From the sequence record MH752840.1: DNA of 64,000 nt; one strand, written 5' to 3'. Every line of letters starts with the position of its first letter. Within the stretch, counting starts at the first letter, position 1. This document shows positions 17,301 through 63,743 of this stretch, in pieces. The stretch is from Escherichia phage vB_EcoM-Pr121LW. The notes below the pieces were generated by a model that saw only the letters and a program-made list of their open reading frames with translations, was not told the DNA's origin and did no database searches. The translations under genes and the position numbers were made by a program.

Positions 17301-19985
17301 ATCATCATGACTGCACTGAGATCAAACATGGATGGGACATCCATGTCCATGCAAATTCCGGTAACAAACGGATACAAACGTGTTGTGATGATCATTAAGT
17401 GCGACCTGATAGGTAAACAAGTTCTTGCAGAAAACGGGACATCCACACATCCTTTTGAGATCGCTCTACACTATCAGTTTGCTGACTCACCTTTTGCAGG
17501 GGATAAGAGAATATCTGATACAGACGCACAGCGTTGTAAGAAAGTATTGTTGGGTGCAGGTTGGTGGTGGTATGAGTTTGATTTAACAGATAAATTCACC
17601 GACACGTCTAAAGTTGTAACAGGACTTCGTCTAGACTTTGGCGAGAACATGCACAAAGCTGTTTGTGATGGCACCTATGGTGACCCTACAATATACCTAA
17701 AATATGTTTCTTTTGAGCATCCGGAAGATGTTGTCTACGGTCCAAAACTGAGATTGTTTGGCAGCTGGATTGCAAAAGATAGGGTAGGTATGGGTAAGAA
17801 GGTAAGAGGGTTCTTGGTTGATGCAGGAACAGAAGACATGCTGGTTAATGCAGTATGGCCTGAATTACCTGGGACTCAGTGGGACAACTCAGCCAAATCT
17901 GTAAACTGGTTTAACATTCATAGGGCCATGTGGACCACTAACTGCTACTTGTGGAGAGAGCTTAACGATCAGGCCTTTGGCTTCAGCGATGGTAGAAGGA
18001 TGGCGATCATTTGCTGGACAACACTGCAAAGATGTTATGACCATAACTATGAGATTGGAGGCAGGGAATGGAAAAATATCAGGGACAGAATCATAACCAA
18101 TTTTGCAGACGACAACGGTGGCGGAGCACATAACTTTGGCACAAGCCGACTCATCCATTTGAACGGATCCTCAGCCTACAAGAAAGAAGGATACTCTGGG
18201 TCCATGATTGAGTGGGGTCTGGTAAAAGATGCTCGTGTGTTGATGGGTCAGCAACTTGCTGCTGCAATAGGGCCGAACGCAGTACAATCTGTTAAACCAG
18301 CGTGGTTCGATATCCCATTATGGTCATCTGGAACACCAGGAACTGCTGCAATCAACCCTGCCACTGGGGATTTGGAAATCTCCTGGGAAGACTTGAAGCA
18401 GGTCGGTGGTTGGGACAAAACAGGGTATCAGGTTCAGTGGTGGAGAGCTGACGGATCTTTAGCCGCTGATGAGTTTGTTAAGGACAATTTCTACACCATG
18501 TCCTCTGCAAAAGCACAGGAATTGTTCGGTCAGGCAACTCCGTCAACGATCACCATGTCCATGTGCTGTAAAGACAACAGGACTGGAGCTTTGGGGCCAA
18601 GGGTTGCTAAGGTTTTCTCAGGTATTAAATGGAATCCCTCTGTTCAAAGTGTTTCATGGAAGCAAATAGGTGATAACAAGCTGCTAGTTACCCCCGCCTG
18701 TCAGTTCAACGCAACTCTTAACGTTGATCCTGCTGCTGCGGCAAACTCAGCTAAAGCTTCTGACTTCTCTGTGTCTAACACTGCTATGGCAGATGTGAGG
18801 AAGATTGACACGCTGAACGCCAGAATTACCTGTAAAAACACTTATGGCACATTCCAGATCATCAACAACTTCACAGATGCTGATTCTAAGGTAGTGAGGA
18901 CAGCAAGCCAGACTCTGAGTTTAGGAACTCTGGCCTATGCAGCCCTGATCACTGAACAGTCGGCAACACTCCAAGGAGGTGGTGTAGGCAAGTCTATTAC
19001 AACACCTGTGTGGAAGCCAAATGAGTGGGTTGTGTTTGATTTGACTGTGGACTTCTCCAGTGATAATAACTGGACATGGGTAAGGGATTGCTTGTCACAA
19101 CTGATGGGTGGTCCAAGCTCCGTTAGTGATAGCCACGACTCCACTGACCCGAGTGTGTTTCAGGTGGGTAAAACTCACCCGGAGACTGGAGCAACTTTGC
19201 CTGACAGGAAGTATGCTTTGGTTTGCATCTCTTACGGAAAAGCAGATGTCACCTTCTCAGGAACACACACTTATAACGGTACATATAACTTCTCAAGGAA
19301 GTATAGTCTCAAGGCAGGGAACATTATAGATGAGGTTGGTCCGTTATATAACCCTGGCAACGGGATAGGGATTGTAGGCGGCAAACTGCAGATGCAGGAA
19401 CCTTCTATTACTCCTTCCAACGTGTCTGGGATCAGGAAGACTTGGGAAAGTAACAATACTGGCATCGCAACTGTGGATGCTACCACCGGACTGGTAACAT
19501 TTAAAGCTCCCGGTGATGTCACTATAACGTTTATAGTTACTGATGATGCAGGGCGCAAAACGTCTTCAACATCTTTTACTGTCAAACAGATGGCACCACA
19601 GTGGAGAATGTGGATAGGTACAGCAACAAACGGGGCATACCCTAATCCGGCAGGTACTTCTGGTATGAAGACTTTCTCTACAAGCGAACCGATGGAGTAC
19701 GGCAGCGGTCCTAAGGTAGGACAGATGGTATACTTTGGTGCGTATATTCCTGAAATTATAGGGCTTCCGAGAAGTCAGCTTCAGTTGCTGTTTGGGGCTG
19801 GTGTTGACGATCTTGCCACTTTCGGGTATAGCGACAACATCGAGGCTGCAAGGAGTTCAGGATGGGTAGGGTTCAGAATGGAGTCTGGAAAGGAAGGCAG
19901 GATTCTAGGGACAGCCTCTATAGGTGTTATGTTCCCTGGTGACCAGCAGTATCGCCTGAAAGCCTACGCAACTTTCTCTCTTTAA
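14349..19985 (+). CDS. large distal tail protein (1878 aa) with C-terminal Ig-like (Big_2-type) region
   Basis: Single long ORF; C-terminal segment VTFKAPGDVTITFIVTDDAGRKTSSTSFTV typical of bacterial Ig-like folds; last gene of late operon. Confidence 0.75.
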   Translation: MLPIPLLKLGRHFLDKRGGIKELAVLSYPIDNSDGTSNTVSYVNSLAILFDDGQLNITGYNRFGECRTGDLDTINYPNEAAWNVDHVWRADRAFVIRTFDNKFFYIGCTAGLIGSEAAGGNDVCVREWTPLPEQIVTGLHLDTHPERLVEVMGGVNNTVWVIAAPEADGMLHLYGSGNNTYGSLHVDKNQHATPVKIGETSESPETGPWKNPRINCEVHDNSVIFGGPNGFWIAGYDFLRNNSKNALVYPAEHVTLDQFKGIPVGETWKGFMCGPNGAIIATERMHKPDDQQLVNVFYGQDVWGDDTWRSLNITYTHEVIMARGYGTSGIFFNNGTKQYRGFSRNLCNDIGAQSANNNPRANFIHYRALATAKFVEQTEPVSWTESVYFQGIHREGFLGTFCVVNGKLWWSGIPRGSFSGSNNLFGGRLNSQGFTEIPENWYKNVPVDSWGIEDIFDVNGVSNASNIYIGDTVKMKLKPQPEGATFIIDKIELVNAAGTVVTDANYQFSTNWNHGGANEVVVTQYNRNINRRGLYSIKITYHDKHGTGRTYTTRTLNWNTIVPAYPSDGKWHTVGRNKQFHVNDTVYFGLNGTQPAVEGDTSYMVRLHRMDAGSVTYDVTQEIYDQRRATYDNIVKTQALWEFNPNGKGGKMLQVNEQNGTSLTVHEHPDPWPDPGKPHPGARTLKIVSHDAGYFGIRWEATVRYADGTTNNIGITLGGTSEDNSLKIAYTPRGISIDNMDVVRNGYGDVNVKVTLGEHLGGERIIMYAFDHDPRTNGTYANQAWSYLINAPEPNTKEFYYGMKRDVCKKTGTHDWIAICVKDERTAWDEPVNRWFIGIPTRSDKYVAEYIVCMGGTNLNLCWNEDANKYSDYDYMRDISCNQWFSQSTGYPPRQARVNPAIFTDTQVFLTKQANEVQTFKNKYDPNKWFYNCYGAFFWGPGELPGGGSCLNEATYASDYIMGQVKKYKIIPGPETLGNAVDPYIIMTALRSNMDGTSMSMQIPVTNGYKRVVMIIKCDLIGKQVLAENGTSTHPFEIALHYQFADSPFAGDKRISDTDAQRCKKVLLGAGWWWYEFDLTDKFTDTSKVVTGLRLDFGENMHKAVCDGTYGDPTIYLKYVSFEHPEDVVYGPKLRLFGSWIAKDRVGMGKKVRGFLVDAGTEDMLVNAVWPELPGTQWDNSAKSVNWFNIHRAMWTTNCYLWRELNDQAFGFSDGRRMAIICWTTLQRCYDHNYEIGGREWKNIRDRIITNFADDNGGGAHNFGTSRLIHLNGSSAYKKEGYSGSMIEWGLVKDARVLMGQQLAAAIGPNAVQSVKPAWFDIPLWSSGTPGTAAINPATGDLEISWEDLKQVGGWDKTGYQVQWWRADGSLAADEFVKDNFYTMSSAKAQELFGQATPSTITMSMCCKDNRTGALGPRVAKVFSGIKWNPSVQSVSWKQIGDNKLLVTPACQFNATLNVDPAAAANSAKASDFSVSNTAMADVRKIDTLNARITCKNTYGTFQIINNFTDADSKVVRTASQTLSLGTLAYAALITEQSATLQGGGVGKSITTPVWKPNEWVVFDLTVDFSSDNNWTWVRDCLSQLMGGPSSVSDSHDSTDPSVFQVGKTHPETGATLPDRKYALVCISYGKADVTFSGTHTYNGTYNFSRKYSLKAGNIIDEVGPLYNPGNGIGIVGGKLQMQEPSITPSNVSGIRKTWESNNTGIATVDATTGLVTFKAPGDVTITFIVTDDAGRKTSSTSFTVKQMAPQWRMWIGTATNGAYPNPAGTSGMKTFSTSEPMEYGSGPKVGQMVYFGAYIPEIIGLPRSQLQLLFGAGVDDLATFGYSDNIEAARSSGWVGFRMESGKEGRILGTASIGVMFPGDQQYRLKAYATFSL

Positions 19986-33465: not shown

Positions 33466-34671
33466 ATGATTTTCATCTACGAACATTTCAAAACTCGTAA
33501 AGAAGCACGCGACCGCCGTGCAGAACTTGAGAAGAAGGGTTTCACATGTGCTATTGAGAAAGGTACTACAACATGGACACTGGCAGTAGGTGCCCCAGAG
33601 CTGTTTGATCCTGACCGAGACAGTGTCTGCTATACCCGTGAGGATTTTGAAACCCGCGAAGAGGCCCGTTTATTCCGCTACGGACTGGAAGACAACGGTA
33701 AGTACGCCATGATCTTAGATTCAGGAGAAGGTTCCGTTAAACGTTGGAGTGTGGTATACCCACTGTGCGTTGTTCACGGTGTGGGGTTCACTGGAGTAGC
33801 AATCAAGTCAGAAGAACCTTCAGTAGAAGTCAAAGATCCGGTGCTGGAGGTGGTAAGCAGTGTTTCTCAACAACAGACTCGAAGCATAGAGCCTTTAGTA
33901 GTTATTTGTGGAGAACTTCTCCAAATCACCTGCAACGAAGGTATTTTTGAAATTCGCCGCAGTGAAAGTGAAGAAGTTTACCAGAAAGTCTTCGACCATA
34001 TCTCTGTTCAGAAATATGACGAGGCAATTGGTGAAATCCTTGTCTGGTTGGAACGCAAGAATGAGTTCACTACACTTGCAGACAACCTGATTATGAAAGA
34101 TGGTAAGCTCTATTACTACGGTGTAGAGATGCAATCTACCATTGCAAAGAAAATTGAGGAAGATTATGTAGATGGAACACTGGACGACCGATATGTTAAA
34201 TTCCTTGTCCGTCTGCTACGCAACCCGTCTGCAAAATCTGTGAACATGCTCTACGATTTCATGCAGGCTAATGACATCCAGGTTGCAGAAGATGGTCGAA
34301 TCATTTGCTATAAAGGGGTTCAGTTTAACGGAGGCAAGTGGGTGGATTGGCACAGCGGTAAAGTTCCACAATACCAGGGTGCTTTTGTATCCATGCCTCG
34401 TAACTTTGTAGAAGATGATCCGGAAGCTGCGTGTTCTTATGGCCTGCACTGCGCCAGCAAAGAGTATGCAGCTGGCTATGGCACCGTAATGATGGTTATG
34501 GTTGACCCTGCGGATGTGGTTAGTGTGCCATACCAACACAACAGTGCTAAGTGCCGTGCATGCCGCTACGAAATCGTAGCAGCACCGGAATCACGCAAAG
34601 ATGGCGATCCGATTGAATACGTAGTTGACCGTGATGGTAACATCATCGACATTATCTACGAGGAGGCGTAA
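33466..34671 (+). CDS. rIIB: rIIB-like protein
   Basis: 401 aa; C-terminal MLYDFMQANDIQVAEDG…SYGLHCASKEY…VDPADVVSVP…AKCRACRYEIV resembles T4 rIIB as recalled; adjacent to rIIA. Confidence 0.8.
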   Translation: MIFIYEHFKTRKEARDRRAELEKKGFTCAIEKGTTTWTLAVGAPELFDPDRDSVCYTREDFETREEARLFRYGLEDNGKYAMILDSGEGSVKRWSVVYPLCVVHGVGFTGVAIKSEEPSVEVKDPVLEVVSSVSQQQTRSIEPLVVICGELLQITCNEGIFEIRRSESEEVYQKVFDHISVQKYDEAIGEILVWLERKNEFTTLADNLIMKDGKLYYYGVEMQSTIAKKIEEDYVDGTLDDRYVKFLVRLLRNPSAKSVNMLYDFMQANDIQVAEDGRIICYKGVQFNGGKWVDWHSGKVPQYQGAFVSMPRNFVEDDPEAACSYGLHCASKEYAAGYGTVMMVMVDPADVVSVPYQHNSAKCRACRYEIVAAPESRKDGDPIEYVVDRDGNIIDIIYEEA

Positions 34672-36041
34672 TGGAAAAAGGGCAGTATGACGTAGGCACA
34701 GATGCTGCCCTCATTGCAATCATGAGCGGTGAGAATGTCTTCGTTTCAGGACCCGCAGGTTGTGGGAAGACGTATCTCATCAACATGATCCAGTCCATGT
34801 ATGGAGACTCTTGCATAACGGTTGCCCCGACAGGGGTAGCCGCATTAAACGTTAATGGAGCAACAGCACACCGAACATTCGATCTTGCAGCAGGTGTGAG
34901 CATGGAGTCGGACTGGACTGCAATAAGGGCAAAAACAGCAAAGCCTTTGAAAAGCAAGGCATTTACCATCCTAATTATCGATGAAATCTCTATGATCCGT
35001 GCTGATAAGTTTATAGAGATGGATAGGAAACTCCGCTTCCTTCGAAAAAATGACAAACCTTTCGGAGGCATACAGGTCATATTGTTTGGCGATTTTTACC
35101 AAGCACCTCCTGTTGTCTCTTCTATGGAGAAGGAAGCCTACTTCAACTTCTACCATACGGACCTGTGTTGCTATACCGAATCTTGGAAAGAGCTTGACCT
35201 CCACAACATAGCCCTAGTAGATCAGTTCCGACAGGAGTCTATTCGATTTGCCACAATGCTCAACTGTGTTCGTGAGGGTCGTCGCATAAAAGAGGTTGTA
35301 GCAGAACTTAATGCTCGTTGTTACAAAGGCGGTGTACCAACAGACGCTCTCACAATTTGCGCCACCAACAAACAAGCGGAGGAAGTGAACAGAAGGTTCT
35401 ATGATGCCATCAACGCCCCAGAAAAGGTATACACTGGTGAAATGAAGGGTAAGTTTCCCTCCACCCTGCCAGTTGAGCAGGAGATGAAGTTGAAAATTGG
35501 CATGAAAGTTATGATAACCGCCAACGATGTTGACCCGACGCACAAAGTACCTTATTATGTTAACGGAACACGTGCCACAATTGTTAAATTTAAGAACAAG
35601 GCGGTGGTGGTAGAGCTTGAAGATGGAACACAGGTTGACATAGAACAGAGGTTGTGGGAGAATAACGAGTATAAGCCATCTCAAAGATACAACATTGCAG
35701 AAAGGAAGATGGAGAAGTTTATAGAGAGGGTAGTGATTGGATCATACAAGCAACTTCCTCTGAAATCTGGGTATGCCGTAACATCTCATAAAAGTCAAGG
35801 ACTTACGCTAGATTGTTACAACCTGGACCTTGGAAAGAACGGAGCTTTCTCTCCTGGGATGACGTATGTTGCTTTGAGTCGAGTTAAGACAATACAAGGG
35901 ATAAACTTGTTGCGTCCACTAAGAGAAGTTGATATTATTGTTGACCCGCGAGTCGTAGAGTTTTACAATACAACATTCCCTGACTTAGACAAAATTGTCA
36001 GGAAAGATTTTGAAACCAGAGCAGAAGAGGGGGACGTATGA
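34671..36041 (+). CDS. SF1B DNA helicase, Pif1/RecD/Dda-like
   Basis: 456 aa; Walker A GPAGCGKTY; Walker B LIIDEISM; motif SHKSQGLTLD. Confidence 0.8.
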   Translation: MEKGQYDVGTDAALIAIMSGENVFVSGPAGCGKTYLINMIQSMYGDSCITVAPTGVAALNVNGATAHRTFDLAAGVSMESDWTAIRAKTAKPLKSKAFTILIIDEISMIRADKFIEMDRKLRFLRKNDKPFGGIQVILFGDFYQAPPVVSSMEKEAYFNFYHTDLCCYTESWKELDLHNIALVDQFRQESIRFATMLNCVREGRRIKEVVAELNARCYKGGVPTDALTICATNKQAEEVNRRFYDAINAPEKVYTGEMKGKFPSTLPVEQEMKLKIGMKVMITANDVDPTHKVPYYVNGTRATIVKFKNKAVVVELEDGTQVDIEQRLWENNEYKPSQRYNIAERKMEKFIERVVIGSYKQLPLKSGYAVTSHKSQGLTLDCYNLDLGKNGAFSPGMTYVALSRVKTIQGINLLRPLREVDIIVDPRVVEFYNTTFPDLDKIVRKDFETRAEEGDV

Positions 36042-37683: not shown

Positions 37684-38448
37684 TTGAAATTTATCTACAA
37701 AGAACACTACCACAAAGGTGTTGTGTGGAGTCTATTTGACGGGTCTGGTGGTGCAGTCATTGACTGGGCAAAAGCTGGGTACCTGTGCCTGTGCTTTAAT
37801 GCAGAAGGTGCTGATCACGGCAGTTATGCAGAGGTGATAACCGATCATCCCAACATTCACTATGTGGATTATTGGATTGACCCATGGTTCCCTCAGGAAA
37901 CTTTTTGCATGTACCCAGCTCCAGACTTTATTCTTGCATTTCCTCCGTGCACGCATTTAGCGGTATCAGGTGCTGCACATTTTAAGAAAAAGCTGGCTAA
38001 GGACCCTATGATCCAAATTAATGCTGTAAAGGATGCTCGGGTTGCGGAAGAGCTGGGAGAGATTTACGATTGCCCGTGGCATGTAGAGAATCCTGTAGGT
38101 GTTATGTCCACACTGTGGCGCAAACCTGATTACCGTTTTCATCCTTCTGACTATGGCGGGTATTTACCGGAGGATGATGTAAACCCTTGGTTTCCTGAAT
38201 TTATAGCTCCACGCGATGCCTATCCAAAAATAACTTGCGGCTGGATAGGTAATGGATTTATAATCCCGGCCACAAAACCTGTCCCGCAAATAGTTGACGC
38301 GGTTAGCGGGTATTCCATGCAACACGCTAAGCTAGGTGGAAAAAGTGCAAGGACGAAGATGATTCGAAGCCTCACACCCCGTGGCTGGGCAAAAGCCGTA
38401 TTCTTAGCAAACGAGCCTGTAGTAAGGAGCAGAATTAATGGGAAGTAA
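37684..38448 (+). CDS. C5-cytosine DNA methyltransferase-like protein (non-canonical)
   Basis: ORF track 37654 (GTG inside terminator); TTG 37684 preferred, AGGAG SD 8 nt upstream; motif I SLFDGSGG, motif IV-like FPPCTH, motif VI-like HVENPVG with canonical spacing; PCT replaces PCQ. Confidence 0.5.
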   Translation: MKFIYKEHYHKGVVWSLFDGSGGAVIDWAKAGYLCLCFNAEGADHGSYAEVITDHPNIHYVDYWIDPWFPQETFCMYPAPDFILAFPPCTHLAVSGAAHFKKKLAKDPMIQINAVKDARVAEELGEIYDCPWHVENPVGVMSTLWRKPDYRFHPSDYGGYLPEDDVNPWFPEFIAPRDAYPKITCGWIGNGFIIPATKPVPQIVDAVSGYSMQHAKLGGKSARTKMIRSLTPRGWAKAVFLANEPVVRSRINGK

Positions 38449-40516
38449 ATTTATGGCATCTGCATATAACCGTTTCGGTGAGCCAAACCCGAAAGCAACT
38501 AAGTATAAAAGTGGGGGAAGTGTGAAACGAGACTATCGTGATGAAAAAGAAGTTGAAACTGTAGAGACTGTTTTAGAAAATACTAAAATCGTCCCTGTCC
38601 CACAACAAAATATTGGTCTGATGGCTGCACAATATTTTGGTGTGCGATCAGCATTGTCCCAAGAAGACGGTGTGACAGTTACTGCAACATATTTCCCATA
38701 TTACGACCGCTACGGGAATCTGTCCGGTTTCAAAAAGCGTGACTGGACGATCCCCAAAGAGCAACGTGGGCACTTTACGACGGTTGGGATCGTAAAGGCT
38801 AACTCCCAGATGTTTGGGCAAAAGCTGTGTGCATCTTCTAACAACCGTAAGCAGATTAACGTTTGTGAGGGGGAAGGCGATGTTATTGCAGCATGGCAGG
38901 CTGCATATCAGATACAAGTAAAAGGGATTCTCACCAACGCTAAAGCCCCGGCAAAGGTGAAACAGTGGGCTAAAGAGGTCCAGGACGGGATCGATGCAGT
39001 TATCAACGGGGGTGATCTGGCAGGAAAACCCTGCCTACCTTTTGTTGGAATTAACTGTGGATGTGCAAACGCAGTAGATACTTTTGCAAACAATGAGAAA
39101 TTTATCCGTAGCTACGGAACAGTGGTCCTTGCAATGGACAACGATGCAGCTAACGAGGTAGAGAAGCAAAAACACGTTATCAAAGGTGTTGAAGCCACAC
39201 ATAATATCGCGGCATTTTTGATGGCTGATAACGTTTACCACGTGGAATACCCCAGCGAGGTAAACGATCCTGACGGTGTAAAAGATATCCGTGACATGCT
39301 GAAGGCTAAAAAGCTGGAAGATATTGTCAACATGTTCCGTCACCCAGTCAAATATGTGCCCGATGCTGTATCTGATTTAGAAGACTTCTCCATTGAATCT
39401 CTTCGTAAGAAGACTTCTAATGGCGTAGATATCAGCGCGGAGTTCCCTAAATTACAGAAGATGCTGAAAGGACTCCACAAAGGCACCTTGATGATGCTGA
39501 CAGGCCCATCTGGCGGTGGTAAAACAACTGTAGCCAAGAAACTAGAGCACTGCATTGCAAAATACTTGATGGATCCGACATGCCCTAAAGCCGATGATTA
39601 TGAAGAGGATGATCGCCTGTGTCTGATTCACCTTGAAGAGGACCCTGAGGAAGCAATTAACTCTCTGTACGCCAACCAGTTGGGGTTTGATGTTAAAGAG
39701 TTTGTTGAAGACCCTAGTCAGTTCCTGACTGATCAGGAGCATGCTGAGATTCACCAATCTTGGGCCAAGGCTGGAAAAATCAAAGTGTTCAAGCATTTTG
39801 GGTCTATTCCTGTAGATGAGTTGATCACTAAGCTTAAACAAATGGTGTGTCTGTATCACTGCCGTTACATTGTGCTGGATCACCTGTCCATGGTAATTTC
39901 AGGGCTTAATGTTAAGGATGAGCGCAAAGAACTTGACATGGCTATGACGCAACTAGCCGCGTTCTGTAAGCAGTTTAATGTATTTATCTTGGTGATCGCT
40001 CACCTGAAACGCACAGAGATTGTGCCTCCAAAGGACAAGGATGGGAATCCGTTACCTTTCTGGTATCCTGTACGAAAAGAGAACCTTCGGGGTAGTGCCG
40101 GATTGGAGCAACTTAGCTGGGTAGTTGTTGGGGTGGAGGCAGAAGAGATGGTGGATCGTTCCCGTGGACGTGTCCGACTGGTAGGTCTTAAAAACCGCCC
40201 AGCAAAAACGTTAGGCATTGCGGATACCTTAGTTATGGATCCCCACACAGGTAAGTTCCATGATGCCAGCAACTGGTACTGGGACAAAGAAATGCAGATG
40301 TTCACAGACGGCGAAGGTGGGGAAGTTGTTTGGAGACCTCAAGCTATGTTTGAGGATCAAGAGCACGCAGTTGTAGAAACACCTGTAGGTAGGGTTGTGG
40401 CTGATAAGGTTGTAACTCCTACTGTTAACCCTGTTGACACACAGGAAGACCTTCCGTATGATGATCCGTCCTCTGACCCTGTTCCTGGCTTTGAAGACGA
40501 TGAAACACCTTTTTAA
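38438..40516 (+). CDS. DNA primase-helicase (Toprim primase fused to DnaB-like helicase)
   Basis: 692 aa; Walker A LTGPSGGGKTT in C-terminal half; T7 gp4-like architecture. Confidence 0.85.
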   Translation: MGSKFMASAYNRFGEPNPKATKYKSGGSVKRDYRDEKEVETVETVLENTKIVPVPQQNIGLMAAQYFGVRSALSQEDGVTVTATYFPYYDRYGNLSGFKKRDWTIPKEQRGHFTTVGIVKANSQMFGQKLCASSNNRKQINVCEGEGDVIAAWQAAYQIQVKGILTNAKAPAKVKQWAKEVQDGIDAVINGGDLAGKPCLPFVGINCGCANAVDTFANNEKFIRSYGTVVLAMDNDAANEVEKQKHVIKGVEATHNIAAFLMADNVYHVEYPSEVNDPDGVKDIRDMLKAKKLEDIVNMFRHPVKYVPDAVSDLEDFSIESLRKKTSNGVDISAEFPKLQKMLKGLHKGTLMMLTGPSGGGKTTVAKKLEHCIAKYLMDPTCPKADDYEEDDRLCLIHLEEDPEEAINSLYANQLGFDVKEFVEDPSQFLTDQEHAEIHQSWAKAGKIKVFKHFGSIPVDELITKLKQMVCLYHCRYIVLDHLSMVISGLNVKDERKELDMAMTQLAAFCKQFNVFILVIAHLKRTEIVPPKDKDGNPLPFWYPVRKENLRGSAGLEQLSWVVVGVEAEEMVDRSRGRVRLVGLKNRPAKTLGIADTLVMDPHTGKFHDASNWYWDKEMQMFTDGEGGEVVWRPQAMFEDQEHAVVETPVGRVVADKVVTPTVNPVDTQEDLPYDDPSSDPVPGFEDDETPF

Positions 40517-40574: not shown

Positions 40575-43352
40575 ATGAGTATGTATAGCTTCGATTTTGA
40601 GGCCTCTGGGCTTTTGGAAGATCCAGACCTTTATTATCACTGCGGCCTGTTTAAAGCGTTGAATAAGAACCGTTTTATGCTGTTCCTTCCTCTGAATGAC
40701 CGCACACACTACTCCGAGGAGGATATAGAGAAGGCTAAGAACTTTATTCTGGCAAAGAAAACTCTTTATAAGGATTTTGAAGTTCGCATAGCAGATTTTT
40801 CGGAGTTGGAAGGTTGGCTTACAGGAAATTCTGACTGGTCACCAACAGCTTTGAACTGCCATAACTGCTACAGTTATGACTTTATGCTGATGGAGAGATT
40901 GTCCGGTATTCATTTTGATATGTTCCGTGACCCTAAGTGTATGGGGACTATCAACGACCACCAGGTTAATCTGTTTGATACGTTGGCGATGAGCCGAATC
41001 TTGTGGCCTGATCGCCCTTTACCAAAAGGTTGTCCGGACTCTGTATTCAACCCGGTTACTAAGAAAATGCAGCCTGTTGGTCCTCACGGACTTATGGCAT
41101 GGGGCTACGCCCTTGGTAACCAGAAAGTTCAAATTGATGACTGGCGCGATCTTCCGTTGTGGAAGTATGTGGATCGTGTATTCGAGGACGTTATCATCCA
41201 GGAGCTGCTCTGGAAAGAGCTGGTAGCGGAATCAAAAGGTGTATTCTACGGCAAATCTGACATGCAGAACTTTATGTACGATCCTGCCAAAGAGAAGCCG
41301 AAAGGGTTCAAGAAGATCACCTGGAAGAACGCATTACGCCGAGGCATGCTGCAGCACTTCCTGATGGAACTGCAGGCCCGTCAGGGTGTGTATTTTGACA
41401 TAGATGGAGCTATTGCTTTACGTGACCGTTGCGATGCGTGGATGAAAGAAATCGCTGATCGTGTTGAACCTCAACTTCCTTTAAAAGAGTTATCAATATC
41501 TCAGCGGCCCAAGTTCCCTGAAAAGCCGTTTAACCAAGACGGGACAATCTCTAATAATGGTTGGAAATGGTTAAAAGATAAGCTTGGCTATCCTGTAGAC
41601 ATGAGCGCTTTAGATTTCAAATCCCCGCCTAAGCGAGCATTTACCTCTACAGGAGATGTCAGCAAGATGGGGATAAAATGGTGTGAAGAGATGGGCTGCA
41701 AAGACCCCGATAAGATGGCTGATTTCTTGAGAGGCTATATTAAGGGCACTTCCACACCTCACCCTTTGCCTAAAGAGCTGATGGATCAGGCAATAAGTGA
41801 TCTACAGCAGAAGCGAATGCCGGACTGCAAGATACCTATGAAAATCAGCAATCAGGACGACATTAAGCGGTATCTGATCAGTGCTGGCTGGCTACCGACA
41901 ATGTGGAGAACTAAGGATGTAACTAAAGATAGCAAGAAGAAAGCTCTACCTGATGCGGATGTTGATGCACGAGTATATGCATATATGGACGAGCTTTTAG
42001 AGTCAGAGTATTGTGACCTGATTATCAACTTCTGGAACAAAACTGATGCCAAGTTCCAGACAACTGTGCACAAGTTCCGAAGCTTTCCTAACTCTGAAAG
42101 GATTAAAAAGGAAGTATTCGGGAAAATACGTAGAAAAGCCAGAGCACTTATTACTTCTCCGCAACTGAAAGATACGTTTGGACACCTGTGTCCGAATCTT
42201 GAAAAATTGAACGGAGAGATGGCTAAAGATATCGTCTTGTGGTTATCATTGCGAAACCGCAGATCAGTCCTTGACCCAATCAAGGAGGATAAGGTTGATA
42301 CTGGTCTTCTTAATCACCCACGTTTGAAGATTGACCATAAGCTTCCTGCTAAAAGCTCTGGATTAACAAACACTTCCAGACAGAAACACAGTATTTGTGC
42401 AAACATGCCTAAACCATCCCCCAAAGTGGTTATGGGTAAAGAGATGCGCAGTCTGTGGGGTGTTCCTCCTGGATACTTTCAGATCGGTATTGACGGGTCC
42501 AACTTAGAGCAGCTTATCGGGGCTTGGGGTGCCTTTGAGTTCGACAACGGCTTGTATTATGATGTTGTAAGTAACGGGGACGCACACCAAAACAATGCTG
42601 AGGCATATACAAAAGTAGCAGGCAGAGAGGTGTCTCGTAACGACGGTAAACCTATCACGTATGGGGTTATGTACGGGGCACAAAAAGATAAAGTTGCAGA
42701 TATGCTGGACATCTCTCCAGAGTTGGGACAAAGGGTAATCGATGCACTCTGGGATGCCAACCCTGGTCTCAAGGGGCGCAAAGAGGATCTGGAGAAATTC
42801 TGGGAAGCAACTGGTAAGAAGTTTATCTACTCTTTTGATGGTCATGCTATCTGGACCAGATCTAAACACTCTTTACTTAATGCATACCAACAGAATGGTG
42901 GTGCATCGCTGTGTGACTTAGTTGGGATACTTATGCACCACCAGATGGTGAAGCGTGGGTGGTACGATGAAGGTGTTCGTCGTATTATCTATTACCATGA
43001 TGAGTACCAACTTCAGGTCCCTGACACTCCTAAGTATAAGACTGTGTACACCTTCGACACAATTGAAGAACTGGAAGCATTTAAGGCAGAGCAGGAGGCC
43101 AAACTTCATGTGTTCGACGGTCATAAGTACAAAAAGGCACGCAAGGATGAGGACGGAAACGAAGTGGTTGACAGAGACGGAAACACGGTGTACGATCCTA
43201 TCCTGAACGATGACGGAAAGCTTGAACTTATCTGGAGCCCTGTGGGTGAAATGGTGGTGCATTGCTTCTGGCAAGCTTCTAAAATGATGGGAGTCCCGTT
43301 CCAGATCACAGGTGAATACTTGTGTGGTCGTAACTGGGGTGATTGTCACTAA
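40575..43352 (+). CDS. family A DNA polymerase with 3'-5' exonuclease domain
   Basis: 925 aa; Exo I FDFEASGL; motif A-like IGIDGSNLEQ; motif B K…YGVMYGAQ; motif C YYHDEYQ. Confidence 0.9.
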   Translation: MSMYSFDFEASGLLEDPDLYYHCGLFKALNKNRFMLFLPLNDRTHYSEEDIEKAKNFILAKKTLYKDFEVRIADFSELEGWLTGNSDWSPTALNCHNCYSYDFMLMERLSGIHFDMFRDPKCMGTINDHQVNLFDTLAMSRILWPDRPLPKGCPDSVFNPVTKKMQPVGPHGLMAWGYALGNQKVQIDDWRDLPLWKYVDRVFEDVIIQELLWKELVAESKGVFYGKSDMQNFMYDPAKEKPKGFKKITWKNALRRGMLQHFLMELQARQGVYFDIDGAIALRDRCDAWMKEIADRVEPQLPLKELSISQRPKFPEKPFNQDGTISNNGWKWLKDKLGYPVDMSALDFKSPPKRAFTSTGDVSKMGIKWCEEMGCKDPDKMADFLRGYIKGTSTPHPLPKELMDQAISDLQQKRMPDCKIPMKISNQDDIKRYLISAGWLPTMWRTKDVTKDSKKKALPDADVDARVYAYMDELLESEYCDLIINFWNKTDAKFQTTVHKFRSFPNSERIKKEVFGKIRRKARALITSPQLKDTFGHLCPNLEKLNGEMAKDIVLWLSLRNRRSVLDPIKEDKVDTGLLNHPRLKIDHKLPAKSSGLTNTSRQKHSICANMPKPSPKVVMGKEMRSLWGVPPGYFQIGIDGSNLEQLIGAWGAFEFDNGLYYDVVSNGDAHQNNAEAYTKVAGREVSRNDGKPITYGVMYGAQKDKVADMLDISPELGQRVIDALWDANPGLKGRKEDLEKFWEATGKKFIYSFDGHAIWTRSKHSLLNAYQQNGGASLCDLVGILMHHQMVKRGWYDEGVRRIIYYHDEYQLQVPDTPKYKTVYTFDTIEELEAFKAEQEAKLHVFDGHKYKKARKDEDGNEVVDRDGNTVYDPILNDDGKLELIWSPVGEMVVHCFWQASKMMGVPFQITGEYLCGRNWGDCH

Positions 43353-50792: not shown

Positions 50793-50982
50793 GCTTAAAT
50801 CCGCATGGAACATTGCTGTAGGTGACGAGATCCGTATTCCCGGTGGAGAAACTATTATGAAGATATCTCGTATCGAGTATGAAGGTGACCGTGTATTCCA
50901 CATCTTTGCAGAAGATGGTCGAGAAATTTATATACAGGCAGGCTCTCACATCTATATCCGTAAGAAAGGGGACGACAAATGA
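50785..50982 (+). CDS. hypothetical protein
   Basis: ORF track 50719; ATG 50785 after AAGGAGGG preferred. Confidence 0.45.
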   Translation: MFKLKSAWNIAVGDEIRIPGGETIMKISRIEYEGDRVFHIFAEDGREIYIQAGSHIYIRKKGDDK

Positions 50983-51311
50983 CAGAGATCATCGTTTCAA
51001 CTGCAGGGTATGTATTCCTGACAATCATTGCGCTGGCTATTCTGGTGGCGGTGTATGGATTTGTTATCCTGCCTATTCTTGAGACATTTAGTTTGTGTCG
51101 GTGTTGGAGAAAAGCTTACGGACCACAACCGTGGAAAGACTGGTTCCATTTGGTGCGTATAGCGTTCTCTTATGCCTATGACCACTCTAGCAGTGCATGC
51201 GTAACCGGGTACCATGCCTACAACTGGAACTGGGAAGGGTTGGGGAGATGGACTGTTACAAAAACTATACCCTTACGGTTGTACAAAGGAAAGAACAAAC
51301 TGGGCACCTGA
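50979..51311 (+). CDS. small membrane protein
   Basis: 110 aa; N-terminal hydrophobic helix FLTIIALAILVAVYGFVILPIL. Confidence 0.5.
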   Translation: MTEIIVSTAGYVFLTIIALAILVAVYGFVILPILETFSLCRCWRKAYGPQPWKDWFHLVRIAFSYAYDHSSSACVTGYHAYNWNWEGLGRWTVTKTIPLRLYKGKNKLGT

Positions 51312-51355
51312 TATTTTAAGTTATCAGGTTCCCAGAGATCAGGAGGATTTCTAAA

Positions 51356-51568
51356 ATGGATTTCCTCCTTTTGATATTTCACCGGACCAGATATTTTAAA
51401 ATTCTTAGAAAATCAGAAAATGGATCGAAAACTAAAATGGATTTTTTCAACACAGGCGCGGAAAATTGTGCCAATCTATCTAGCCGTTTGCACCATATTC
51501 GAAATCACCGTTCCAGATTTCCCACACATACACACCTCCCCGCCATACCTTTCTCCACTCACTCTTAG
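51356..51568 (+). CDS. basic His/Arg-rich hypothetical protein
   Basis: 70 aa; strong AGGAGG SD 7 nt upstream; sits inside repeat-rich region so coding status uncertain. Confidence 0.35.
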   Translation: MDFLLLIFHRTRYFKILRKSENGSKTKMDFFNTGAENCANLSSRLHHIRNHRSRFPTHTHLPAIPFSTHS

Positions 51569-51620
51569 TGATTTATGACGGAAAACCCATCACTATCAGT
51601 GAGTTGCGGTACAATTTTTC

Positions 51621-51800
51621 CAGTACTCGATCTACTTTTCATTTCATGGTTTGGATTTTCTGAAAATTTTTCTCGATAAATTTCTCAGTACTCGATCTGT
51701 TTTTCGTTTTCTGAATCGGATTTTCTGGAAATCGTTCCGGCTCTCGACCTGAAATTTTTGGGGACGAAATCGATTTTTCGTTTTCAGAAATGGATTTTTA
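51621..51800. repeat. AT-rich direct repeats with ~65-bp period (two good copies plus a degenerate third)
   Basis: CAGTACTCGATCT at 51621 and 51686; shared TTTTCnTTTTC…GGATTTTCTGRAAA tails. Confidence 0.7.
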
Positions 51801-51912
51801 AAATTTCTATATGGGAATATTTTATGGGGTACTGTTTTATAGGAAATTGTTACGGATGGTAATTAGCATGCTAATTAAATTTATTAAATGCGAGGAGTTC
51901 TCATTTAGAATT

Positions 51913-51931
51913 TTGAATGATAATCATTCTC
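51913..51931. promoter_or_regulatory. Fur-box-like palindrome (15/19 to GATAATGATAATCATTATC)
   Basis: ttgAATGATAATCATTcTC; core AATGATAATCATT is a perfect 6-1-6 palindrome. Confidence 0.35.
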
Positions 51932-51946
51932 GTTTGCAGAATAACG

Positions 51947-51969
51947 GGCAGGCCCGGTGATTGTCTCCC
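51947..51969 (+). repeat. GC-rich 23-bp element GGCAGGCCCGGTGATTGTCTCCC (copy A)
   Basis: Inverted copy at 61604-61626 (22/23 identical); variant at 52088-52121. Confidence 0.8.
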
Positions 51970-52048
51970 GGCCCCTACTGCCCCGGCTTGCTATTATAGT
52001 AACACACAGGACAAAGAAAGCAAGAAGTTTTTGCATAAATTTTTAGAC

Positions 52049-52067
52049 GATAATGATAATCGTTCTC
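52049..52067. promoter_or_regulatory. Fur-box-like site (17/19 to GATAATGATAATCATTATC)
   Basis: GATAATGATAATCgTTcTC; followed 20 nt later by GC element variant, repeating the arrangement at 51913-51969. Confidence 0.4.
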
Positions 52068-52087
52068 ATTTCATGCAGCGCCCATCC

Positions 52088-52121
52088 CCGGTGGTTGTCT
52101 CCCCCGTCACCGGTGCCTGCC
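52088..52121. repeat. variant GC element CCGGTGGTTGTCTCCC…CACCGGTGCCTGCC (copy B)
   Basis: Carries both halves of the 23-bp element in rearranged, partly inverted form. Confidence 0.6.
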
Positions 52122-52146
52122 GTCCTTTCGATAGGTATATTGTGCC

Positions 52147-52285
52147 ACCTGGCGGGGCCGCTGTCAACACTTTTCAAAAAATTTTTCTAACCTGATGCGC
52201 TAACCGCTGCAACCTGGCGGGGCCAGCCTGGCAGTACCTAACTGACCAGGTAGGAGAGAATGAAGGCTTGTAAACCTGGTGGGCC
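52147..52285 (+). repeat. three direct copies of ACCTGG(C/T)GGGCC at 62-65 bp spacing
   Basis: Copies at 52147, 52212 and 52274; related copies at 52451 and 59321. Confidence 0.6.
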
Positions 52286-52326
52286 TATGCTATAGGATAG
52301 GTAACAATTGAAGAGGAGGTACAAAA

Positions 52327-52503
52327 ATGAAAGGTAATATAATCCCCCTGGAAAATGTAGCTATTAATGACGCTGAGGCTATCGCCCTGGTTGAAAAGGC
52401 TATGGCGGGAGCGTTGGAACATAAAGAAGAGTACGAAAAAATGATGGTTAACCTGGCAGGGGCGGCGGCTGGAGAATTCTGCCCAAAAAATAATTTTACA
52501 TAA
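52327..52503 (+). CDS. small hypothetical protein (58 aa, not in ORF track)
   Basis: GAGGAGG SD 7 nt upstream of ATG; stop abuts next promoter. Confidence 0.45.
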   Translation: MKGNIIPLENVAINDAEAIALVEKAMAGALEHKEEYEKMMVNLAGAAAGEFCPKNNFT

Positions 52504-52849: not shown

Positions 52850-53248
52850 ATGAAAACCACAACCTTTAATTTTGATAATGCCGACTTCTCTTTTTCTGAT
52901 GTCAAGAACTGCCGCCGTGATCGTGGATTTTACAAGGCTTATAATCTGGTGGGCCTGGACGATGACAATAATTTGCACGAAGTAGCTGAGATCCGGTATT
53001 ATGCCGCCTCCAGCGGTAACACTCATTATTGCGTCTTTTGGATGCACGACAGCAAGAACAACAAGTACGGTTATACTGGTGGCAAGGCGAGCGGTCACGG
53101 TTATGATAAGGCCAATGCAGCACTTGAAAGCGCGTTAAATGCTATGGGGATCACTGCCAACGGCTGGATCTATGAAGATGAGTTTTTGTCAGCACTTGCT
53201 GCCCACCTGGGGTATAAAAAGCACATTGTGACATGCGCCCACGAATAA
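52850..53248 (+). CDS. hypothetical protein
   Basis: 132 aa; SD AAGAGGATAAAATCATG. Confidence 0.55.
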   Translation: MKTTTFNFDNADFSFSDVKNCRRDRGFYKAYNLVGLDDDNNLHEVAEIRYYAASSGNTHYCVFWMHDSKNNKYGYTGGKASGHGYDKANAALESALNAMGITANGWIYEDEFLSALAAHLGYKKHIVTCAHE

Positions 53249-59035: not shown

Positions 59036-59320
59036 ATGGCTATTGTTACCGCTGGCGATGTAGTAGAAATGGAAGCAAAATACTTAAAAGAGGGTATGCA
59101 TATCCTACGGAATGATCAAGAGTTATTATTAACGATGGTTGACTATAATCCCGGCCAGGATTATCCAAGCATCGACTACTTTTTTGAGTATGTTAATGAA
59201 GAGTTGAAAGAGGATGAGGCCTACTGCGGTGAGTTCTGCAACTTCTTTTGTCCTGATGAGGTTGTAAAGGTTATTTATCAACCTGGCGTAGCTTTCCCGC
59301 TGCACGCTATCAATAAATAA
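59036..59320 (+). CDS. acidic hypothetical protein
   Basis: 94 aa; TAGGAG SD. Confidence 0.55.
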   Translation: MAIVTAGDVVEMEAKYLKEGMHILRNDQELLLTMVDYNPGQDYPSIDYFFEYVNEELKEDEAYCGEFCNFFCPDEVVKVIYQPGVAFPLHAINK

Positions 59321-59384
59321 ACCTGGCGGGGCCGAAAAGGCCCCTACAGCATAAAATTATGAAAATAAAGAGAGGTAAATCATC

Positions 59385-59618
59385 ATGATGGAACAAATTA
59401 AACGCACCGAGGCTATTAATGGCAATGTGATCTATTTTGTTAGCAAAAACGAAAAAGGCGTACCATATGCGGCGGTAATAGTACAACCTGACGGCGATTA
59501 TTGGTTTACTGTGTACGGCGCTTATTCTTTTGGGCGTCCAGTGCATGATAAAATTTTGAAAGTAGCGAACCCTACCGGGAAGAATATCACAGCAGAAAAA
59601 TTTTTTGAAAATAGTTGA
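59385..59618 (+). CDS. hypothetical protein
   Basis: 77 aa; AGAGAGG SD; ACCTGGCGGGGCC motif and GGGGCC…GGCCCC hairpin in leader. Confidence 0.5.
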   Translation: MMEQIKRTEAINGNVIYFVSKNEKGVPYAAVIVQPDGDYWFTVYGAYSFGRPVHDKILKVANPTGKNITAEKFFENS

Positions 59619-62942: not shown

Positions 62943-63549
62943 TCTGTATTTCTCCTACCACAAACGGCCCCACCTGGCAAGTGGAATAATTGACTAGCCA
63001 TCAATCCCACACACTGTACAAATATACATGTAAAATAGCTATTGCATAATCTTTCATTGTGTGGTAGCAGGGCCATTTTTACACGTTTTTCCTTCCAAAA
63101 TTGCACGTAATGCAGCTATTGCACAAAATTTAACCTGATGCATATCTTCAGTGTCCTGTCAACAACTAAAAATCTTTATAAGTCATACACTTACACAACC
63201 ACAAAAGCGTGTTCTACGTGAAAAATCGGGTATAACTATAGCCACTAAATTCCAGAATTCACGTAGCGTCACCATTCTATAGTCTGCTAAGCATTTATTC
63301 CAACCATAGAATAACGGAATAGTCAATACCTGCATAAAATAATTATTCGTTTAAACTGCATAACATAAATCAGCCAGGGTGTCAACATTTTTCGTAAACA
63401 GTCAGAAATTGTCACGGTTAGTTATCATAAACAGAGAAATATTTAGTTGTCTAATGTTTACTGTACATTACTATATTGACTGGAATCATTAGATGACTAA
63501 GAGAAAGATAAGAAATAATTAACAATACAACTATTTTATCCGTAACAAT

Positions 63550-63743
63550 AAGGCAACTATGCAAACGAATGGCATGGCGCGACGGAGTCGCGACATAATA
63601 TAAAAGCAGTAACCATCACCCCCGTGATAGTTTGTCTGCAAACTATTAATCAGATCATAGTTGCCTTGTATTTAGTTAATCATGACATAACAAGCAAGGC
63701 AACTATAGATCTGCTAATAGTTGCCCTGCTTTTATATTATGTC
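63550..63743. repeat. palindrome/iteron cluster: four copies of AAGGCAACTAT in alternating orientation, 18-bp inverted repeat pair, CGCGAC-GGA-GTCGCG palindrome
   Basis: Sites at 63550, 63657(rc), 63696, 63717(rc); GACATAATATAAAAGCAG at 63592-63609 and its reverse complement at 63726-63743. Confidence 0.8.

Follow-up and report, generated by a model that had tools for sequence, protein, structure and literature searches.

What function is served by a kilobase of repeat-rich DNA, apparently free of genes, that separates the replication genes of an rV5-like phage from its early genes? The 64,000-nucleotide stretch examined in this study (hereafter, the window) belongs to Escherichia phage vB_EcoM-Pr121LW (MH752840.1), an rV5-like myovirus (Vequintavirus), and the region in question occupies positions 51312-52326. 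An initial annotation had interpreted this region as a probable replication origin, with a regulatory RNA locus or a packaging signal as alternatives. The features behind the origin proposal were borne out, namely non-coding DNA, phased repeats and an easily melted segment, with a replisome encoded upstream and an early gene array following, which gives that proposal partial support. The interpretation favored here, tentatively and at slightly less than even likelihood, is that the region is an origin of replication, perhaps the primary one, that bears iterons, is activated by transcription and is gated or shaped by Fur, the iron-sensing repressor of the host.

Neither strand of the interval is coding. 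Three plus-strand open reading frames (ORFs; ORF199, ORF198 and a bas54_0101-like ORF), compared with 14 relatives, were rejected as genes, as they carry stops or frameshifts in relatives and show no third-position bias. ORF199 changes frame or contains stops in most of 13 relatives, ORF198 would start inside a Fur box and is interrupted by two stops in one relative and shifts frame in another, and the bas54_0101-like ORF (34 codons, TTG start, no Shine-Dalgarno sequence) contains stops in one relative. Variable columns at the three codon positions numbered 34/32/31 for ORF199, 14/13/15 for ORF198 and 6/8/8 for the bas54_0101-like ORF, compared to 9/8/22 for the 3' end of the flanking gene, where third-position bias is evident. 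Six minus-strand ORFs were also rejected in this comparison, since they either behave like those on the plus strand or are absent in other genera; the sole intact one (51905-52036) crosses a promoter and a Fur box, and has neither codon bias nor a GAP31 counterpart. The earlier statement that only one weak ORF lies here is correct in spirit, the ORFs present having failed the frame, stop and codon-position tests. Published annotations of the interval disagree, showing different small ORFs on either strand, or none, depending on the annotator, and the rV5 counterpart (116.5-117.8 kb, opposite strand) is annotated as ORF199, ORF198 and ORF197. ORF199, ORF198 and their equivalents should be removed from annotations.

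The same DNA is more conserved than the genes beside it. The interval 51200-52400 was found in 121 phage records, 113 of them with at least 80% coverage, and is 96.8% identical in Escherichia phage isim and 94.3% identical in rV5. Across 14 aligned Vequintavirus genomes, the core (51650-52170) is 96-100% conserved and the segment 51350-51450 is 91-100% conserved, compared to 85-92% for the flanking genes, while the spacer between them (51450-51650) drops to 74-86% with small indels. In other genera, sensitive BLAST aligned only approximately 51875-51971 (a Fur box and a GC-rich leader); reading the loci themselves showed that the order of parts is shared by Seunavirus GAP31, Mydovirus Mydo, Phapecoctavirus phAPEC8 and several uncultured contigs from IMG/VR. 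In these relatives, GATATTT boxes ending the upstream gene are followed by AAATGG(A/T)TTT or TTATCTCAAA boxes, then by three direct repeats of about 65 bp, two to four Fur-type boxes 29 bp apart, a GC-rich element with a minus-strand promoter, and finally the early genes. The GATATTT and AAATGG(A/T)TTT boxes recur in GAP31, Mydo and three uncultured loci (L049, L020 and L053), and phAPEC8-type phages keep the Fur boxes and promoters with different repeats. Repeats that differ between phage groups fit co-variation with a phage-specific binding protein, and iterons that vary between subfamilies next to constant host-factor sites are what would be expected of a phage-specific iteron-binding protein.

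The functional importance of the region is suggested by the HIDEN-SEQ transposon map of Bas54 (phage MaxBurger), which is 91.6% identical over the interval and whose annotated genes are given here in window coordinates (bioRxiv 10.1101/2025.11.20.689424, supplementary table 8). Insertions were recovered at 18 of the 21 TA sites of bas54_0099 (50979-51311, Non-essential), one of three in bas54_0100 (approximately 51606-51752, call NA), none of 11 in bas54_0101 (approximately 51758-51862, Essential) and five of 15 in bas54_0102 (approximately 51917-52195), the last with about 13 reads compared to about 200 in its neighbors and a call of Strong fitness defect; from 52327 onward, 86-100% of the sites in bas54_0103 to bas54_0109 were hit (0103 Intermediate, 0104-0109 Non-essential) (bioRxiv 10.1101/2025.11.20.689424). 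Because these three Bas54 'genes' most likely do not code, the simplest interpretation is an element essential in cis and centered on the third iteron, which overlaps the insertion-free interval, and on the AT-rich tract, which coincides with it. Conservation across genera combined with this insertion-free island makes a cis-acting essential element likely, and such an element, rather than genes, most likely explains the essential or near-essential scores of the hypothetical genes bas54_0100 to bas54_0102. The preprint makes no comment on the bas54_0100-0102 locus, and remarks instead on an insertion-free '~2 kb' non-coding region at bas54_0134/bas54_0135 (bioRxiv 10.1101/2025.11.20.689424), which measures about 2.5 kb by annotation.

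Read from right to left, the parts of the region are a promoter (P_B-), a GC-rich leader, Fur box B, a second promoter (P_A-), another GC-rich leader, Fur boxes A and A', an AT-rich tract bearing a palindrome, three iterons, a variable spacer and AAATGGAT boxes. This minus-strand reading, which follows from conserved promoters, goes beyond the initial annotation, as do the canonical status of the Fur operators and the heterogeneity of the ACCTGG motifs described below. P_B- (52167->52139, minus strand) has the form TTGACA-17-CACAAT with an extended -10 TG and a score of 10/12, and its predicted start lies near 52132. All 23 relatives examined have a homologue that scores at least 9/12, at a constant distance and with a spacer homologous to that of P_B- in the window; these homologues include TTGACA-17-TATAAT and TTGACA-17-TATACT, and 10 of the 23 score at least 10/12, compared to 1.3% of control windows. 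P_A- (51993-52023, minus strand) combines TTGCTT (52023->52018) and TATAAT (51998->51993) across a 19-nt spacer, with a predicted start near 51986; its positional homologues are TTGATC-16-TATTAT with a TG in GAP31 and TTGCTT-16-TATTCT in phAPEC8. The two promoters are in tandem, 136 bp apart, and point into the AT-rich tract, which starts approximately 55-200 nt downstream of them. The '-10-like' boxes that follow the GC-rich elements belong to these minus-strand promoters. Leader A (51942-51985, minus strand) contains the conserved GGTGATTGTCTC at 51956-51967, which reads GAGACAATCACC on the transcribed strand, and no stable or covarying fold was found in it; leader B (52078-52131, minus strand) contains GGTGGTTGTCTC at 52090-52101 and a hairpin, CCGGTG...CACCGG.

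The ACCTGG(C/T)GGGCC motif ACCTGGYGGGSC was found at 52147, 52212 and 52274 as originally noted, and is strongly over-represented, with five copies in 64 kb compared to 0.59 expected (0 of 100 shuffles) and the remaining two at 52944 and 59321. The three copies in the region are heterogeneous, and the original description needs correcting for the first and the third. The first ACCTGGCGGGGCC motif (52147-52158) is the spacer of P_B-; the second (52212-52223) lies in a degenerate, conserved copy of that promoter 65 bp upstream (CTGCCA-17-TGCAGC, minus strand); and the third forms the spacer of a possible plus-strand promoter (TTGTAA-17-TATAGG, 52268-52296) for the first early gene (ATG at 52327). 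Several relatives diverge completely after approximately 52235, which places this third motif and its candidate promoter in a variable stretch beyond the conserved core. As a separate observation, the copy of ACCTGGCGGGGCC at 59321 forms a perfect hairpin with the following GAAAAGGCCCC, is preceded by ACCTGGCG at 59282 and lies ahead of a gene that starts at 59386; the stretch (59270-59360) could be one instance of a recurring regulatory hairpin or promoter spacer. In addition, the 17-18-nt spacers of the leftward promoter in relatives (e.g., L003, L049, L053, L141, L148 and L151) consist of GC-rich inverted repeats with arms that covary from phage to phage (GCCCagggatcGGGC, GCCCCagggaatGGGGC, CCCCGtgtaatgCGGGG, GGGGCgcaaGCTCCT), which suggests an operator or a bidirectional terminator within the promoter.

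Bacterial Fur operators follow a 19-bp consensus, GATAATGATAATCATTATC, which can also be described as a 7-1-7 motif, TGATAATnATTATCA. The boxes initially called Fur-like are strong matches to this consensus: operator B, GATAATGATAATCGTTCTC (52049-52071, 7-1-7 core 52054-52068), agrees with it at 17 of 19 positions, for which 0.04 sites are expected per window, and duplicates unit A at a distance of 134-136 bp. Operator A, AATGATAATCATTCTCGTTT (51916-51935, 7-1-7 core TGATAATCATTCTCG at 51918-51932), marks the only part of the interval that is alignable across genera, and a degenerate operator A', tGCGAGGAGTTCTCA (51889-51903), stands 29 bp from it. With up to two mismatches allowed, the 7-1-7 motif occurs at three sites in 64 kb, two of them in the region (51918 and 52054, one mismatch each). 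The 20-mer AATGATAATCATTCTCRTTT is found exactly in at least 120 viral contigs with unrelated flanks in IMG/VR, and its variant in box A (A instead of G at position 17) has exact matches in more than 120 bacterial genomes spread over many phyla. Seven adjacent ORFs, each at most 50 nt downstream of it, were sampled, and encode two TonB-dependent receptors, three Fur proteins, one periplasmic solute-binding (iron-binding) protein and one PepSY_TM protein. Placement upstream of Fur-regulon genes in bacteria indicates that the 20-mer is a canonical Fur operator; by sequence, the boxes of the region are such operators, and Fur would be expected to bind them in the phage.

Compared to their bacterial counterparts, which box B matches at the consensus and box A matches exactly, the phage boxes are placed differently, as they lie approximately 55-80 nt past the predicted leftward starts instead of over the -35 and -10 elements, and no iron gene follows them. 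This position, at about +55 to +80, makes a roadblock or an architectural role likelier than classical promoter occlusion. A plus-strand Fur-repressed promoter (TTGAAT-18-CAGAAT), with box A between its two elements, is less likely, as it scores only 8/12 and its -10 element is not conserved. Fur-type boxes also recur in the second non-coding region of rV5-like phages, in the first-step-transfer (FST) repeat region of T5-like phages and in many uncultured viral contigs; that host Fur is a built-in component of origin or master control regions in large lytic phages is nonetheless a generalization that we consider unlikely. The exact AATGATAATCATTCTCRTTT is carried by IMG/VR loci L008-L127 (e.g., L009, L011, L029, L035, L115, L028, L042 and L116), where it often follows a consensus sigma70 promoter directly or belongs to an array of two to six boxes, and in some cases adjoins DnaA boxes and iteron-like repeats. 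The density of strict DnaA boxes in these loci is 0.256 per kb within 400 nt of AATGATAATCATTCTCRTTT, compared to 0.022 per kb elsewhere in the same loci, an approximately ten-fold difference.

Beyond the operators lies the AT-rich tract (51781-51931, GC 0.26), a highly conserved candidate DNA-unwinding element that ranks as the second least stable duplex of 100-150 bp in the 64 kb by nearest-neighbor stability and holds a perfect 18-bp palindrome, TAATTAGCATGCTAATTA, at 51860-51877. It adjoins three plus-strand repeat units that start at 51613, 51678 and 51752, with spacings of 65 and 74 bp. The direct repeats CAGTACTCGATCT reported previously are indeed present at 51621 and 51686, and the periodicity of about 65 bp is supported by an autocorrelation peak of 37 matching 4-mers at lag 65 (51312-52326), compared to an average of 6.6 at other lags and an average maximum of 14.6 +/- 2.1 in composition-preserving block shuffles, none of which (0 of 200) reached 37; lags 134 and 136 reflect the duplicated unit of Fur box and GC-rich element. 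Tandem Repeats Finder did not report the 65-bp repeats because they are too divergent. Iteron 1 (51613-51677, about 65 bp) consists of a core, (C)AGTACTCGATC, that includes GATC, followed by TTTTC, GGATTTTCT and the A/T tract GAAAATTTTT, and is less conserved than the other two; iteron 2 (51678-51742) is 96-99% conserved; and iteron 3 (51743-51815, 74 bp) has a core degenerated to GGCTCTCGACC and an internal imperfect AT-rich hairpin. Nine copies (three each from the window, GAP31 and Mydo) yield the consensus GGGTTCTCGATCG-TTTTTC-N-ATCGTATTTTTT-N-AAAAAATTTTT, and the core common to the three phages is GGTTCTCGATC. Each iteron core contains GATC (window 51613-51815; L002:2232-2448; L004:2238-2450; L049:1495-1712), and the density of GATC in the iteron blocks is two to four times that of the surroundings (e.g., 28 compared to 6.9 per kb in Mydo), an enrichment that recalls the Dam/SeqA-controlled origins of enterobacteria.

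To the left of the iterons, the variable spacer (51451-51612) contains a 16-bp inverted repeat (51557-51604) and indels of 1-3 bp, and evolves at least as fast as the flanking genes. It is bordered by a conserved block (51338-51450, plus strand, 91-100% conserved) with AAAATGGAT boxes at 51353, 51417 and 51434, whose GGATTTT is found again in every iteron. The plus-strand (G)ATATTTTAA boxes lie at 51310 and 51390, and the boxes of the left block are arranged as a repeat of about 80 bp. The four motifs reported at the outset were recovered as A(A)AATGGAT at 51353, 51417 and 51434 and GAAATGGAT at 51785, four in the window compared to 1.08 expected. At the left edge, an imperfect 14-bp hairpin (51300-51335), CTGGGCACCTGATA / TATCAGGTTCCCAG followed by TTTGTTCTTTCC on the minus strand, might possibly terminate leftward transcripts; no conservation of this hairpin was found in the rV5 subgroup.

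These parts can be assembled into a mechanism. Early in infection, host sigma70 RNA polymerase would fire P_B- and P_A-, and the leftward transcripts would pass a GC-rich leader and then a Fur operator before entering the 150-bp AT-rich tract. On the far side of this tract, a phage protein presumably binds the three iterons and the GGATTTT/AAATGGAT boxes of the left block (51338-51450). The tract would be opened by transcription or an R-loop acting with the nucleoprotein complex on the iterons, and the T7-like primase-helicase and PolA encoded upstream could then load. Iron-bound Fur at its operators could serve as a gate, roadblock or architectural factor and so couple initiation to host iron status. 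The genes of this T7-like replisome lie about 8 kb upstream of the control region and encode a Pif1-like helicase (34671-36041), a DnaB-type primase-helicase (38438-40516) and a family A DNA polymerase, PolA (40575-43352). Downstream begins the array of small early genes, each preceded by a near-consensus sigma70 promoter.

Two kinds of known origins provide precedents. In the primary origin of T7, the tandem promoters phi1.1A and phi1.1B are followed by an AT-rich segment, and T4 oriF and oriG combine a promoter with a downstream unwinding element and an R-loop primer. The region studied here likewise has tandem promoters aimed into an AT-rich tract and a T7-like replisome (primase-helicase, PolA); it differs in that its promoters are of the host sigma70 type rather than the phage RNA polymerase or MotA type, that Fur operators stand between promoter and AT tract, that three 65-bp iterons lie beyond, and that priming by the transcript is presumed. 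Iteron-type origins include lambda ori and those of the plasmids pSC101, R6K and P1 (oriR), and the region shares with them phased repeats beside an AT-rich unwinding element, GATC in the repeat core and nearby host-factor sites. In contrast to these origins, its units are 65-74 bp long with an 11-bp core rather than 17-22 bp, DnaA boxes are absent, the host-factor site is for Fur rather than IHF, DnaA or Fis, and no initiator gene was identified alongside. If the region is an origin, its novelty would be the canonical Fur operators between promoter and unwinding element, in a design that combines promoter-driven and iteron types.

Several observations weigh against an origin. No DnaA box (TTATCCACA) is present in 51312-52326 even with one mismatch, no initiator gene was identified (the flanking genes encode small hypothetical proteins), and the 65-bp units are much longer than classical iterons. 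The 19-nt spacer of P_A- is suboptimal, and promoter-like sites are no more numerous in this part of the window than in shuffled sequence. In addition, the HIDEN-SEQ transposon carries an anti-CRISPR marker with an undescribed promoter (bioRxiv 10.1101/2025.11.20.689424), and poor marker expression in non-coding DNA could mimic essentiality. In architecture, the nearest relative is the T5 FST region, to which an injection-stop function has been attributed rather than an origin (bioRxiv 10.1101/866236). Furthermore, a second non-coding region, which begins at 62.9 kb of the window and extends past its end (Bas54 92,786-95,297, L007:4787-7298), is also free of insertions. Flanked by gene blocks that converge on it, this second region includes the duplex of lowest stability in the window (63402-63552), repeats (GTGTGTAAAC and others), GATATTTG boxes and, just beyond the window end, four to five Fur-like boxes; it is at least as good an origin candidate, and either or both regions could be origins. 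The analysis shows the anatomy of the region, its lack of coding function, its conservation, the conserved leftward promoter and the agreement of its boxes with canonical Fur operators, whereas we infer origin function, transcription priming, iteron binding and the role of Fur.

There are several other potential explanations for the region. It could be a Fur-gated non-coding transcription unit in which the leftward promoters make one or more regulatory RNAs, such as a leader or a long non-coding RNA from 52132 to approximately 51300, that control the early-to-middle switch or host functions, are iron-tuned by Fur and use the repeats as RNA- or protein-binding modules. The conserved leftward promoters and the frequency of Fur operators just past sigma70 promoters in unrelated viral contigs agree with this explanation, and insertion intolerance would suit an essential RNA as well as an origin. 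The regulatory RNA suggested initially finds partial support, in that relatives carry a structured RNA with compensatory changes directly downstream of P_B-, although this RNA has no homologue in the window. Conservation of the iterons, moreover, takes the form of sequence blocks rather than pairing, folding energies for 51935-52200 are unremarkable on either strand (z -0.5 and -1.35), no hairpin of the leader motif GAGACAA(N)CACC is consistent from genus to genus, and no convincing terminator was found. Rfam searches returned nothing at or below E 1 for the region when hits up to E 10 were allowed (best snoR130, 18 bits, E 6.8), and nothing credible up to E 1 for three relatives and the second non-coding region; searches for tRNA and tmRNA also found none. 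A regulatory RNA unit appears rather unlikely. With a length of about 80 nt, the RNA of the relatives is a candidate for a new structured RNA and lies immediately downstream of the leftward promoter in Seunavirus, Mydovirus, Phapecoctavirus, Hena1-like phages and uncultured relatives (L002:2669-2755(-), L003:2689-2770(-), L004:2677-2762(-) and 18 further loci; alignment A3, model R1). Five pairs covary in its variable hairpin, and it further comprises a long-range CGGCG/CGCCG helix, an invariant 3' AAGGUNNAUCGCCGGUAG and a possible CCNN/NNGG pseudoknot; it has no Rfam match. Among the 21 sequences, 93.6% of cells are paired compared to 85.8% in shuffles, seven pairs show compensatory changes, the covariation score is 0.242 compared to 0.113 when shuffled (0 of 500) and at most 0.086 in slid controls, and the alternation of G-U and A-U fits the minus strand only. 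The R1 covariance model, run over the whole window (cmsearch, filters off), had its best hit outside the region, in coding DNA (10.7 bits, E 0.35), and scored 6.6-7.7 bits within the region; in Vequintavirus, the position of this RNA is occupied by the duplicate Fur-box unit.

A simpler possibility is an ordinary operon boundary with terminators or insulators, protein-binding repeats and early promoters, the apparent essentiality being an artifact of transposon selection. The region does separate two co-directional gene blocks, its repeats contain hairpins followed by T-runs, and the count of promoter-like sites and the absence of insertions from both large non-coding regions, with a marker promoter that is left undescribed, would all be compatible with such a boundary. 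However, a passive boundary would not be expected to be more conserved than the adjoining genes or to keep its architecture across genera, and the early genes downstream have their own consensus promoters and tolerate insertions. In addition, the five of 15 sites recovered within 51917-52195 had about 15-fold fewer reads, and recovery at such reduced numbers speaks for an effect on fitness rather than a complete inability to express the marker; a mere boundary is quite improbable. Another type of DNA signal, either a pac site or an injection or anchoring signal that resembles the T5 FST and is built from host-factor sites, would likewise be essential in cis. Repeat Region 3 of the T5 FST, described as an 'injection stop signal', is similarly a large, conserved untranslated region with repeats of about 66 bp (bioRxiv 10.1101/866236), and arrays of Fur-type boxes occur in it; Davison reports 66-bp DRE repeats and nine DRD repeats there (bioRxiv 10.1101/866236). 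Like the region, it has short iterons and is more conserved than its neighboring genes, and the counterpart in T5-like phage DT571/2 combines iterons, a Fur-type box array and the TTATCTCAAA motif common to GAP31 and phAPEC8. The T5 region, in contrast, lies in a terminal repeat with eight DnaA boxes, the feature that underlies Davison's model (bioRxiv 10.1101/866236), whereas the region studied here has no DnaA boxes. The reported circular permutation of rV5 (PMC3606486) argues against a location in a terminal repeat and leaves no fixed first-injected end, which makes an injection-stop function unlikely, and the packaging signal considered initially is unlikely as the terminase genes are about 80 kb away in Bas54 coordinates. 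A pac or injection signal is the least credible of these explanations, and we consider it very improbable. The T5 preprint makes no mention of Fur, and the injection-stop function of the T5 region is itself unproven (bioRxiv 10.1101/866236). Fur-type boxes and half-sites (AATGATTCTCATTT and variants) were observed at 6.7-8.0 kb of DT571/2 (L045:6700-8000) and in L019, L060 and L070, and the Fur-type array of the T5-like FST lies between GTCGGATTTGCACA iterons and DnaA boxes.

Database and literature searches add some context. Compared against plasmids and E. coli chromosomes, the region showed no similarity except to one phage genome deposited as a plasmid (PLSDB CP057073.1, 137,565 bp; match 17005-17733, 95.9% identical), which has the size of an rV5-like phage genome, was recorded as a non-mobilizable E. 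coli 'plasmid' from cattle feces and is probably a phage carried by or co-assembled with the isolate. Sixteen to 17 GenBank records named 'Campylobacter phage' (MG0656xx, labeled C. jejuni) match the region over its full length at about 90% identity, and their host labels look doubtful. An IMG/VR search with the flanking proteins returned two loci only. The literature search found no paper on an origin, a transcriptome or Fur in Vequintavirinae, and the BASEL and Septuagintavirus papers contain nothing on genome ends. The rV5 genome paper sought an origin by skew analysis and found none (PMC3606486), so no other origin has been established; in line with that result, the GC skew of the window merely tracks gene orientation.

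No origin has been defined for rV5-like phages (Vequintavirinae and Stephanstirmvirinae), which are widely used in therapy cocktails and in the BASEL collection, and the present analysis narrows the candidate to approximately 600 bp with a testable mechanism. Binding sites for Fur are unusual in a lytic phage. If host Fur were a built-in component of such control regions, phage replication or the early program would be licensed by host iron status, through either a Fur roadblock or a nucleoprotein scaffold built by Fur. Canonical Fur operators here and in at least 100 unrelated viral contigs suggest that sensing of host iron status is common among lytic phages, a subject that has barely been explored experimentally and that would bear on the performance of phages at iron-limited infection sites.

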